Assembly: GCF_003334815.1 (NCBI RefSeq)
Contig: NZ_QOWO01000107.1
Strand: one strand, 5' to 3'
DNA: 1,086 nt
Source of the DNA: Escherichia coli
GTDB taxonomy: Bacteria; Pseudomonadota; Gammaproteobacteria; Enterobacterales; Enterobacteriaceae
In this document: piece after piece, positions 1 through 1,086 of the stretch
How positions within the stretch are numbered: the stretch's first letter is position 1
Layout: each line of letters starts with the position of its first letter
Made by a program: the position numbers and the translations under genes
Notes under the pieces: generated by a model
Seen by the model: the letters and a program-made list of their open reading frames with translations, nothing else
The model's database searches: none
Told to the model about the DNA's origin: nothing

Positions 1-68
1 TTCGCCAGGAACGACCGGAACGCGGCATCATGCGGCGTGGGCGTTGTGGTGTTTTTCTTCTTACTCAC
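1..68 (-). CDS. hypothetical protein, 5' end only (continues past the left window edge); N-terminus MSKKKNTTTPTPHDAAFRSFLA...
   Basis: GTG start at 68..66 preceded by GGAGG (77..73) with a 4-nt spacer; the start overlaps the TGA stop (67..65) of the upstream gene as GTGA; frame stays open to the window edge (22 codons); the initiation region and first ~19 codons are homologous to the start of the 65..580 gene. Not in the ORF track because it is truncated by the window. Confidence 0.5.
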   Translation of the reverse strand, partial: MSKKKNTTTPTPHDAAFRSFLA

Positions 69-77
69 GGTTCCTCC
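51..77. repeat. 27-bp direct repeat, copy 1 (gtttttcttcttactcacggttcctcc); on the minus strand this is the SD plus GTG start of the 1..68 gene
   Basis: 25 of 27 nt identical to 563-589; weaker homology continues into both downstream coding regions. Confidence 0.8.
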
Positions 78-580
78 ATCAAATCAGCAGCATCGCAGCA
101 ATCATCGTCCAAATCCCCACAACCAAGAGGACAGCAATTGCGATCAAAGCCGTGACAACAATAGCCACGTTCTGCGTCACGGCGTATTTCTTCTGCAATC
201 TCTTCAGCGGAAAGGTAATCAAACTCCTCACGGGCCAGTTCCAGGACCAGCAGATGTTGTTCTGTCGGCAATGTAGACACAAAATTATCAATAGCAGCAC
301 TCAAACGTCGCTGATATAGCTCATAAACAAGACCACAACGGTGCATTAGTTCTTCGGATAATAGTTCCAGTTTTGAGCGAACGCTGTCAGCATTGAAAGT
401 GACTTCATCAGATGACATCTGAAAATCTTTGTCAGTGTCAAAACAAGACTTCATTTTTATCTCCTGCCCGTCCGGGCCCTGAATGAAAGAAAACCTGTTT
501 CCCTTCTCTGTTTTTTTATGGAACAGGAGGAATCCGGTACCATGCGACATAGACGTCATGATGTTTTTCATCTTGCTCAC
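65..580 (-). CDS. hypothetical acidic protein, 171 aa from GTG at 580 (alternative internal ATG at 454 would give 129 aa); Cys-rich C-terminal tail GYCCHGFDRNCCPLGCGDLDDDCCDAADLMEEP; no family recognised
   Basis: Long open frame (part of the 65..676 track ORF); GGAGG at 589..585 then 4 nt then GTG at 580..578; this initiation region is duplicated at the next gene; CTG/GAA/CGT-rich codon usage; roughly 34 Asp+Glu against 19 Lys+Arg by my count; stop TGA at 67..65. The track start at 676 is rejected: it has no SD and overlaps the upstream gene. Confidence 0.6.
   Translation of the reverse strand: MSKMKNIMTSMSHGTGFLLFHKKTEKGNRFSFIQGPDGQEIKMKSCFDTDKDFQMSSDEVTFNADSVRSKLELLSEELMHRCGLVYELYQRRLSAAIDNFVSTLPTEQHLLVLELAREEFDYLSAEEIAEEIRRDAERGYCCHGFDRNCCPLGCGDLDDDCCDAADLMEEP
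73..77 (-). promoter_or_regulatory. Shine-Dalgarno (GGAGG) for the 1..68 gene, embedded in the last codons (M-E-E-P) of the upstream gene
   Basis: GGAGG then AACC then GTG, with the GTG overlapping the upstream TGA as GTGA. Confidence 0.55.
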
Positions 581-589
581 GGTTCCTCC
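563..589. repeat. 27-bp direct repeat, copy 2 (gtttttcatcttgctcacggttcctcc); on the minus strand this is the SD plus GTG start of the 65..580 gene
   Basis: 25 of 27 nt identical to 51-77; differences at repeat positions 8 and 13. Confidence 0.8.
585..589 (-). promoter_or_regulatory. Shine-Dalgarno (GGAGG) for the 65..580 gene
   Basis: GGAGG then AACC then GTG; sits inside the duplicated 27-bp element. Confidence 0.55.
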
Positions 590-644: not shown

Positions 645-911
645 TCAGTGGCAGACCCGTTCAATTTCAAGCGCACGGAGCAGGTGCCCCCACTCGCTGA
701 CTTTCATGGCGGGGATACGCACCCGCTTCCGCTCACTGCAGCGTCTGGCGATATGACCGCCCATCGCCAGGACGTCCGGGTTAATCTCATCCGGTGCCAG
801 TTCCTGGCGTCTGAAGCGGGTATGGCGGTGCAGGGGTTTGTTCTCCCGCAGGCACTCTTCACGCAGACGCTTTACATATTCAGCCGTTGCAAAGATAATT
901 GATGGTCTCAT
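645..911 (-). CDS. hypothetical small basic protein, 88 aa (MRPSIIFATAEYVKRLREECLRENKPLHRHTRFRRQ...ERVCH); Arg-rich, possibly nucleic-acid binding; identity unknown
   Basis: ATG at 911..909 preceded by GGAG (923..920) with an 8-nt spacer; stop TGA at 647..645; Leu codons are CTG-dominated on this strand (6 of 8) versus CTC-dominated on the mirror plus-strand ORF; about 15 Arg + 4 Lys against 12 Asp/Glu. The track extends this ORF to 1007 (120 aa), but the extension crosses the terminator hairpin and uses rare AGG/ATA/CGG codons. Confidence 0.5.
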   Translation of the reverse strand: MRPSIIFATAEYVKRLREECLRENKPLHRHTRFRRQELAPDEINPDVLAMGGHIARRCSERKRVRIPAMKVSEWGHLLRALEIERVCH

Positions 912-919
912 GGCATAAT
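911..919 (+). promoter_or_regulatory. candidate extended -10 element (TGgCATAAT) on the plus strand
   Basis: TG at 911-912, one nt, then CATAAT at 914-919 (5/6 match to TATAAT); no convincing -35. A transcript from about 926 would end at the 979-1004 terminator. Sequence pattern only. Confidence 0.2.
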
Positions 920-923
920 CTCC
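920..923 (-). promoter_or_regulatory. Shine-Dalgarno (GGAG) for the 645..911 gene
   Basis: GGAG then 8 nt then ATG at 911..909. Confidence 0.45.
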
Positions 924-942
924 ATAGTTCGTGAATGAGATG

Positions 943-969
943 CCGGACTTCCGTACGGGGAAGCGCCGG
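943..969. promoter_or_regulatory. imperfect palindrome / inverted repeat upstream of the small basic gene; candidate operator or RNA stem
   Basis: CCGG-a-CTTCC-GTACGG-GGAAG-cg-CCGG: outer CCGG (943-946 / 966-969) and inner CTTCC (948-952) / GGAAG (959-963) arms around a GTAC core; lies 32-68 bp upstream of the ATG at 911. Confidence 0.3.
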
Positions 970-978
970 CAGAGAAAG

Positions 979-1004
979 GCAGGGTTTATCGCCCTGCTTT
1001 TTTT
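979..1004 (+). terminator. intrinsic (rho-independent) terminator hairpin, strongest on the plus strand; possibly bidirectional
   Basis: Stem GCAGGG (979-984) / CCCTGC (992-997), 7-nt loop TTTATCG, then T7 run (998-1004); an A-rich tract upstream (973-977) could extend the stem. On the minus strand the same hairpin is followed by the weaker tract CTTTCTCT. Confidence 0.6.
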
Positions 1005-1086
1005 CATTCCGGACAGCGACGCAGTGCCAGCGCGAGCGCTTTCATCTTCCAGCCTTCCGGCGTGCGGTACATCACCTTCCAGTAGC
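1004..1086 (-). CDS. 3' end of an unidentified gene entering from the right edge (C-terminus ...YWKVMYRTPEGWKMKALALALRRCPE, stop TGA at 1006..1004)
   Basis: Frame open from the window edge to the TGA, with CTG/GCG/CGT/CGC/CCG/GAA codons; stop is followed immediately by a hairpin. Not in the ORF track because the start lies outside the window. Only 27 codons are visible, so support is limited. Confidence 0.35.
   Translation of the reverse strand, partial: YWKVMYRTPEGWKMKALALALRRCPE

Follow-up and report, generated by a model that had tools for sequence, protein, structure and literature searches.

A candidate cis-encoded antisense RNA over the start of ygdA in the leading region of IncI-type and related plasmids

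A cis-encoded antisense RNA that covers the ribosome binding site (RBS) of its target is a classical kind of plasmid element. In the FinP/traJ pair of IncF plasmids (Rfam RF00107), an RNA of ~80–100 nt is built of stem-loops, the last of which is a U-tailed terminator. Its promoter lies on the opposite strand in the 5' part of the target, the RNA lies over the target RBS, and the stem-loops differ in sequence from one plasmid lineage to another but retain their structure. In the SymR/symE pair, the antisense promoter lies a few nucleotides inside the coding sequence (CDS) of the target, and the RNA overlaps the start codon and the Shine-Dalgarno (SD) sequence. Likewise, Inc RNA/repZ of IncI1 plasmids and CopA/repA of IncF plasmids are cis-antisense systems that act on the leader or RBS region of their targets through loop-loop contacts. 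Here, we describe a candidate of this kind in a stretch of 1,086 nucleotides from Escherichia coli (contig NZ_QOWO01000107.1), which we call the window. Positions ~906–1004 of its plus strand are likely to be the gene of a cis-encoded antisense RNA of ~99 nt, with a promoter inside the gene ygdA and a predicted action on the ygdA initiation region.

An earlier note on this DNA, made from its letters, had suggested a short plus-strand transcript that ends at a hairpin at 979–1004 and runs antisense to the start of the small basic gene, i.e., ygdA. Comparison with related loci lends this suggestion strong support through the promoter, the RNA length, the covariation and the terminator polarity, albeit with another promoter and another length than the note had given. 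A conserved duplex promoter, a fixed distance of ~100 nt, covarying stem-loops and a polar terminator make a cis-antisense RNA gene the simplest account of the locus. Other readings, namely a plain or bidirectional terminator, a structure in the sense leader or in single-stranded DNA (ssDNA), the terminator of a mirror open reading frame (ORF), and a type I toxin-antitoxin pair, are less consistent with the data.

Promoter and terminator on the antisense strand

The target gene ygdA lies on the minus strand at 645..911 and encodes a basic protein of 88 amino acids. Its start codon is the ATG at 911..909, preceded by the SD sequence GGAG (923..920), and the substitutions seen in its frame are synonymous. 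A promoter scan of the window found a single sigma-70-like site, TTTACA-N17-GATAAT on the plus strand. Its −35 box (871–876) lies inside ygdA codons 12–14, and its −10 box (894–899), separated from it by a 17-nt spacer, lies inside codons 5–6 (ATT ATC).

We compared 40 related loci with YgdA identities down to ~35–45%, using 35 loci for the promoter and length tests and 32 for the polarity of the terminator. An antisense −35/N17/−10 arrangement scoring at least 9/12, with the −10 box at nucleotides 13–25 of the CDS, was found in 34 of the 35 loci (~35–100% YgdA identity), and 32 of these promoters have an extended TG. Together, they make up about half of the total of 67 such matches in the 211,108 strand-nucleotides that were scanned. 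When R100, one plasmid of Citrobacter and one of Leclercia were scanned, each gave a single promoter-like match, on the antisense strand and a short way into the gene, with an antisense terminator ~100 nt downstream. Within ten IncI-type plasmids, TTTACA-N17-GATAAT is invariant in all ten, and four synonymous substitutions fall within its spacer.

Conservation at synonymous sites was investigated in 27 unique sequences anchored on the −10 box. Silent sites are saturated in this set, as a flanking Ser codon uses all six of its codons, and the third codon positions of the promoter spacer vary freely. The codon that gives the antisense TG is ACA, TCA or GCA, so that CA is constant in 25 of the 27 sequences across three amino acids. 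Similarly, the base that gives position 6 of the −35 box, the third base of codon 7, is T in all 27 sequences, although the residue may be Tyr, Ala, Ser, Thr or Phe. For the Val-Lys/Gln pair, only GTA-AAG and GTC-CAG are used, and hence the −35 box always reads TTTACA or TGGACA, a 5/6 match. The TG and the last −35 base thus stay constant while the amino acids change and the silent sites are saturated, which supports selection on the promoter boxes at the nucleotide level. In other clades the −10 element consists of TGn followed by AACAAT (4/6), whereas the window clade has a Phe codon instead of the TG and has GATAAT (5/6) as its hexamer; this looks like compensation, in which the better hexamer offsets the lost TG.

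A perfect TTGACA, which Val-Lys encoded as GTC-AAG would give, was never seen in the 27 sequences. The −35 box is always one mismatch off, both in the window (871–876) and in the equivalent positions of loci L012–L047. Selection for sub-maximal promoter strength may explain this absence.

The earlier note placed the promoter elsewhere, at an extended −10-like TGgCATAAT (911–919). This motif is present as written, with TG at 911–912 and CATAAT at 914–919, but it is not a conserved promoter. It is replaced in three of the ten close IncI-type relatives, in which ygdA starts with GTG and the AT-rich spacer differs, and among 31 unique sequences only those of the window's clade have it. It is complementary to the AT-rich stretch between SD and ATG of ygdA, lies inside the predicted RNA, and is not more than chance and local AT-richness. 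The conserved pair at 871–876 and 894–899 lies 20–40 nt further upstream. Since TG plus CATAAT is a reasonable extended −10 in the window plasmid, it could provide a secondary start in this clade. However, an RNA starting from it, ~7 nt downstream at ~926 and ~80 nt long, would miss both the anti-SD and the anti-start codon, and we consider this version very unlikely.

At the other end of the predicted RNA, direct reading confirms the hairpin with its plus-strand U-tract at 979–1004. The terminator stem-loop (SL3, 979–997) consists of GCAGGG (979–984), the loop TTTATCG (985–991) and CCCTGC (992–997), which form 6 bp, five of them GC, around a 7-nt loop. It is followed by a U-tail of seven T (998–1004), so that the plus strand has the GC-rich, short-loop stem and the immediately adjacent 3' U-tract of an intrinsic terminator. 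In the computed fold, SL3 can be extended to 972–1004, as the A/G-rich flank at 972–978 pairs with the U-tail. A pattern scan listed the hairpin at 979–997 solely in the minus orientation, with the tail CTTTCTCT (5 T in 8). Probably, the scan missed the plus-strand hairpin because the flank pairs with the T-run and was absorbed into the stem. In the alignment of the ten IncI-type plasmids (90–100% identity), the hairpin is invariant and the plus-strand T-run is always there, and in most of them the minus-strand tail is degraded to CTCTCTCC. The length of the T-run ranges from 5 to 9 T between otherwise near-identical plasmids (window 998–1004, aligned loci L003–L011). Such variation resembles the outcome of strand slippage, and it could adjust how efficiently transcription terminates or what 3' tail the RNA has.

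The polarity of the terminator is conserved as well. Within the 8 nt after the stem, the antisense strand has 5–7 T in all 32 loci (mean 5.9), whereas the sense-strand tail has a mean of 3.0 T in 8; five or more T occur on the sense side in the window alone, and the other 31 loci have at most four. This polarity bears on the possibility, already named in the earlier note, that the hairpin simply serves the right-hand gene as a bidirectional terminator. That gene is ygcA, which encodes 144 amino acids when complete. Its 3' end lies on the minus strand at 1004..1086, and its TGA stop codon (1006..1004) overlaps the final T of the U-tail. Alternatively, a terminator without an RNA gene might act as an insulator that stops plus-strand read-through (e.g., from ygeA) into ygcA and its ssDNA promoter. 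The hairpin indeed immediately follows the stop codon of ygcA, bidirectional terminators usually have a stem with an A-tract on its 5' side and a T-tract on its 3' side, and the scan flagged the minus-strand tail of the window. Yet the sense tail is U-poor in 31 of the 32 loci, and four IncF-type loci without an upstream ORF of at least 40 amino acids ending there still keep the hairpin and the T-run. Moreover, a terminator by itself leaves unexplained why a promoter ~100 nt upstream is conserved at synonymous sites and why a second stem-loop (SL2, see below) is conserved. A sense promoter scan of the ygcA-ygdA spacer found none. Transcription of ygdA is by read-through from ygcA, and strong termination in the sense direction would therefore silence ygdA. 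For these reasons, we regard a terminator without an RNA gene as unlikely. A further alternative in the earlier note, that the hairpin terminates the plus-strand mirror ORF 648..902, did not hold up. The open antisense stretch shifts frame between loci, so that the ORF is not conserved in frame, and the substitutions are synonymous in the minus frame.

Fold and covariation of the predicted RNA

Transcription from the antisense promoter would start at 904–907 and end in the T-run, giving an RNA of ~99 nt (906–1004) with three stem-loops. The 5' stem-loop SL1 (906–940) contains the anti-start codon CAT (909–911) and the anti-SD CTCC (920–923), as well as TGgCATAAT. SL2 (942–970) pairs GCCGG-A-CTTCC with GGAAG-CG-CCGGC, a helix that is kept with different sequences in other clades, and SL3 is the terminator. 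The predicted RNA has a minimum free energy of −43 to −44 kcal/mol; for the plus-strand segment 905–1006 the value is −44 kcal/mol (z = −4.5), and none of 200 shuffled sequences folds as well. The predicted RNA spans the ATG and SD of ygdA and is antisense to the 5' untranslated region (UTR), the RBS and the first two codons. A length of ~80 nt, as originally proposed, is hence replaced by ~99 nt, which includes the anti-start codon and the anti-SD. The original description of the transcript as antisense to the promoter and 5' leader of ygdA is correct for the leader but not for a promoter.

With a start 7 nt after the −10 box, 33 of the 35 loci yield an RNA of 95–104 nt that ends in a hairpin followed by T4–7. 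All these RNAs share the layout of three stem-loops, with SL2 sequences that are unrelated between clades. SL1 is present in every clade, but its register relative to the ATG differs, and it was therefore left out of the covariation test. Applied to a plain MAFFT alignment, RNAalifold recovered SL3 only, because the 3' arm of SL2 was one column off register in the IncF-type rows.

A covariance model built from 17 sequences comprises 8 bp of SL2 and 6 bp of SL3. Searched against 233 kb, it gave 39 full-length matches, all of them antisense to the 5' end of a ygdA-family gene, and no other significant match. The matches include plasmid pESBL and 14 IncF-type loci that were not part of the seed (E = 2.5e-7 to 2e-3), and in the window the model, R1, matches positions 906–1003 (48.4 bits, E = 1e-8). 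Over SL2 and SL3, 95.4% of the alignment cells are paired, compared to 80.5 ± 1.1% in shuffles (none of 500 as high) and to 30–50% in controls with slid partners. Double-sided changes occur at 9 of the 14 pairs and in 67 cells, against 21 cells in the shuffles. In SL2, 7 of the 8 outer pairs change on both sides. In SL3, 99.5% of the cells are paired, and two pairs show double-sided change across clades.

One locus (L023) has a second copy of the element on its minus strand (2618–2719, E = 1e-13). This copy adjoins a ygdA paralog that has decayed to a pseudogene with several stop codons, while its RNA region looks intact.

Several points weigh against an antisense RNA gene. One locus (L032) has no promoter match of at least 9/12, another (L012) has no terminator within 170 nt, and the −10 box of the window is without the TG seen elsewhere. 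The promoter hexamers overlap the conserved N-terminal motif S-I-[IV]...V-[KQ] of YgdA, so that their conservation is partly protein-driven, and the 27 sequences behind the synonymous-site argument are unique yet phylogenetically related. The covariation alignment was fitted to the model structure, G.U and A.C cells number 12 versus 8, which does not alone place the helices on the antisense strand, and the transcription start site and the 3' end are predictions only. Furthermore, papers that applied RNA immunoprecipitation sequencing (RIP-seq) to FopA and FinO, with an IncI1-carrying strain, are silent on such an RNA; their text gives the top ligands only.

Some of these points also fit a different explanation. 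The helices might act in the sense mRNA leader, by affecting stability, processing or the presentation of the RBS, or in the transferred ssDNA, as a pause or priming site. In that case, the promoter-like boxes would simply follow from the conserved YgdA N-terminus. The helices are equally possible on the complementary strand, the count of 12 versus 8 does not decide between the strands, the plus strand would be the transferred strand (T-strand; see below), and the hexamers overlap the conserved residues I5, V13 and K/Q14. In contrast, the U-tail is strictly confined to the antisense strand, and the TG and the last −35 base stay constant while the amino acid changes. In addition, stems of 6–14 bp are far too short to rebuild a −35/−10 duplex as in Frpo-type promoters, and a plus-sense RNA cannot prime on the plus strand. 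We consider an action in the sense leader or in ssDNA quite unlikely, and it is the U-tail and the promoter, rather than the G.U and A.C counts, that assign the helices to the antisense RNA. An ssDNA promoter at 906–1004 was rejected as well, given the short stems, the position of the −35 and −10 boxes outside the stems in coding DNA, and the presence of the true ssi-type element upstream of ygcA.

Genomic setting and proposed role

Many E. coli plasmids contain the window at 100% identity. In total, 1462 of 1477 matching places are on plasmids, and a search of a phage collection with the window gave no match. Annotated records of identical plasmids identify the window as the ygcA-ygdA junction in the leading region of IncI1/Igamma/K/B/O plasmids. 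The gene order in these records is nikA/relaxase and oriT, followed by a minus-strand run of ygfB (DUF4942), ygdB (Rpn nuclease), ccgAII, ygdA, ygcA, ardA, psiA/psiB, a parB-like gene and ssb. This agrees with the earlier statement that all convincing genes of the window are on the minus strand. Its convincing ORFs are ygdA, the ORF 65..454 (129 amino acids), which is ccgAII, and the 3' end of the right-hand gene.

Leading regions are an active topic of research, as they contain anti-defence and establishment genes whose expression falls within the first minutes that follow transfer. Early after conjugation, the leading-region operons of the IncI1 plasmid pESBL are transcribed from ssDNA promoters, and start sites were determined by 5' rapid amplification of cDNA ends (PMC12672017). 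Upstream of ygcA there is a gap of 700 nt, for which an ssDNA fold gives a hairpin of −97.6 kcal/mol (z = −7.5; L002 10439–10760, just right of the window). In pESBL, the region in front of ygcA (L017 19817–20546) matches the one in front of ssb at 87.5% identity over 312 nt, and the one in front of the DUF4942 gene at 81%. Judged by these identities, these are evidently the three dispersed class 1 ssi/Frpo ssDNA promoters of IncI1 plasmids. Homology of the upstream hairpin to the elements of ssb and DUF4942 makes ygcA-ygdA very likely one of the six early operons. Because transcription from an ssDNA promoter needs the transferred strand as template of the leading genes, we infer that the plus strand of the window is the T-strand.

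Within this setting, the sigma-70 promoter in the first 40 nt of the ygdA CDS would start a transcript on the opposite strand, about two codons into ygdA. The RNA would cross the start codon, the SD sequence and the 5' UTR of ygdA, and would end at SL3 and its U7, just touching the ygcA stop codon. Through its perfect complementarity, it could pair with the ygcA-ygdA mRNA over the ygdA initiation region and block ribosome binding, and the duplex would probably trigger cleavage. Expression of the distal genes might also be lowered, i.e., of ccgAII and the Rpn nuclease gene in this plasmid, and of DNA methylase or DUF3560 genes in its relatives. By analogy with FinP/traJ, SymR/symE and CopA/repA, we infer that the RNA is produced and represses ygdA, and probably the distal genes, in established plasmids.

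The polarity of the two transcripts suggests how such repression might be timed. The sense operon would be driven by the class 1 ssi/Frpo promoter on the incoming T-strand. The antisense RNA has T-strand polarity and thus could not be transcribed from the incoming single strand. Its template would arise only after synthesis of the complementary strand, so that the operon would escape antisense control for as long as the plasmid DNA in a new host is single-stranded. In the established, double-stranded plasmid, the antisense RNA would repress the operon. The ssi-type promoter is itself expected to switch off on second-strand synthesis (PMC12672017).

Tentatively, the RNA might therefore be an establishment timer, although we lean somewhat against this broader proposal. 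Early operons headed by ygdA, with their nucleases and DNA methylases, would be translated only in the ssDNA phase after conjugative entry, as a zygotic induction at the RNA level beside the shut-off of the ssDNA promoter. Lineage-specific SL1 and SL2 would prevent cross-talk between co-resident IncI and IncF plasmids. The control of leading regions has so far been explained by ssDNA promoters alone, and a conserved antisense RNA at the head of one class of early operons would add a post-transcriptional layer. Such an RNA would also explain the silencing of potentially harmful cargo, such as the Rpn nuclease and orphan methylases, in established hosts. Many resistance plasmids carry the element in their leading region, and after establishment it probably keeps the early operon silent.

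Alternatively, ygdA and the antisense RNA could be a type I toxin-antitoxin system that serves addiction, comparable to SymE/SymR or hok/sok, instead of a timing device. An antisense promoter a few codons inside the target and an RNA over its RBS match SymR/symE, leading regions do carry hok-type systems, and the pseudogenised ygdA copy keeps an intact RNA region. However, the AlphaFold model of YgdA (predicted local distance difference test, pLDDT, 79.8; moderately confident) has three helices and depicts a basic, soluble-looking protein, not a small hydrophobic peptide. YgdA is without a match to any toxin family, and ygdA always precedes, as the head of the operon, variable cargo of the anti-restriction type. 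An addiction pair thus seems highly improbable to us. More generally, the YgdA family had no match in Pfam, NCBIfam, PHROGs or PADLOC and no sequence relative in the PDB, and a Foldseek search with the model gave no significant fold match. If the antisense RNA is real, synonymous promoter mutations can separate RNA from protein, which offers a handle on the function of this family.

In some RefSeq records, YgcA (144 amino acids; window 1004–1086; L003 2863–3297) is named 'post-segregation killing protein PndC'. A comparison of YgcA with NCBIfam gave no match, and its PHROG matches are only families of unknown function. A Hok/PndA-type hydrophobic toxin ORF of ~50 amino acids with an overlapping leader ORF was not found among the ORFs of the window, and Rfam Sok gave no match. 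We therefore rejected this hok/sok lead, and the name PndC for YgcA looks like an annotation error.

The YgdA family is widespread. A tblastn search with YgdA found homologs with ~42–47% identity in at least 5000 PLSDB plasmid records, R100 included, and the plasmids that carry the family comprise IncI1, IncK, IncB/O, many IncF and other enterobacterial plasmids. Searching species-representative genomes with the family alignment brought in another 30 loci, which come from Lelliottia, Pantoea, Cedecea, Mixta, Erwinia, Klebsiella, Raoultella, Edwardsiella and others. Read in the sense of the gene, the upstream spacers of the distant homologs are laid out as in the window: a TGA embedded in an A-run is followed by a GC hairpin that lacks a U-tract in the sense direction, by a further hairpin and by the SD sequence. 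The cargo behind ygdA varies between an N6 DNA methylase of 276 amino acids, a DUF3560 protein (453–461 amino acids) with a SAM methyltransferase, proteins of ~300 amino acids, and the Rpn nuclease (loci L012–L015 and L018–L047). The ygdA-like gene and its antisense RNA thus behave as a portable head for operons. The element is present in R100 and in many further IncF plasmids, unlike the classic F plasmid, in which the best match of the covariance model had E = 0.41 (L048, NC_002483.1 45000–70000) and no copy was found. F is hence unsuitable as a test system, whereas pESBL and R100 are suitable. The predicted RNA corresponds to complement 65982–66079 in pESBL (NC_018659.1) and to complement ~30664–30766 in R100 (NC_002134.1).

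The region behind ygdA contains a 70-nt direct repeat (window 520–589 versus 8–77, 76% identity). The copy at 520–589 is a remnant of the 5' end of an Rpn-family gene, with its SD sequence and first ~20 codons, and in many relatives ygdA is directly followed by Rpn. From this stub and this gene order, ccgAII (65–454, minus strand) seems to have been gained by the window's plasmid through an insertion or duplication.

On the other side of ygdA, a minus-strand ATG (1005–1007) overlaps the ygcA stop codon as ATGA and is kept in almost all loci (ATGAAAAAAGCAGG). From this ATG (1007..1005), an in-frame ygdA extension to 120 amino acids (ORF 645..1007) is open in the window but probably not real, since the variation of the T-run from 5 to 9 T among near-identical plasmids would shift the frame. 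Beyond the terminator, 'CAGAAATGA' is conserved as well.

Comparison with known systems

The RNA family, its place at the head of operons with ssDNA promoters and the implied timing logic appear to be new. An Rfam 15 cmscan of the window (E ≤ 1) gave no relevant family, FinP (RF00107) included, and only a spurious match to an internal ribosome entry site elsewhere. Full-text searches on ygdA/ygcA, the ligands of FopA and FinO, leading regions, plasmid transcriptomes and ydaB found no RNA at this locus, although subscription journals or supplementary lists of small RNAs may mention one.

The closest likeness is with FinP/traJ, with which the predicted RNA shares all the features listed at the outset, from its size and U-tailed last stem-loop to the divergence of sequence under a common structure. 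Unlike FinP, it has three stem-loops instead of two, there is no sequence or covariance similarity between them, and the target here is the leading-region gene ygdA, whereas the target of FinP is a transfer activator. In the position of its promoter and in its overlap with the start codon and SD sequence, the element resembles SymR/symE. Yet SymE is an SOS-induced toxin, whereas YgdA is without evidence of toxicity, and the two systems have no homology. Inc RNA/repZ and CopA/repA are alike in being cis-antisense RNAs of the same plasmid families directed at a leader or RBS region. They control replication initiators at the replicon, whereas the element described here is located in the leading region, within an operon that has an ssDNA promoter.

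With bidirectional intrinsic terminators, the 3' end of the element shares a GC hairpin with an A-run on one side and a T-run on the other, but across the family the U-tract is kept on the antisense side only. Finally, the Frpo/ssi promoters (classes 1–3; PMC12672017) occupy the same neighbourhood, also form hairpins of the T-strand, and govern the timing of leading genes. Their hairpins, however, measure at least 300 nt, rebuild a promoter on ssDNA, and are switched off on conversion to double-stranded DNA. In contrast, the element at 906–1004 would use an ordinary duplex promoter that is on only after this conversion and that drives the opposite strand.

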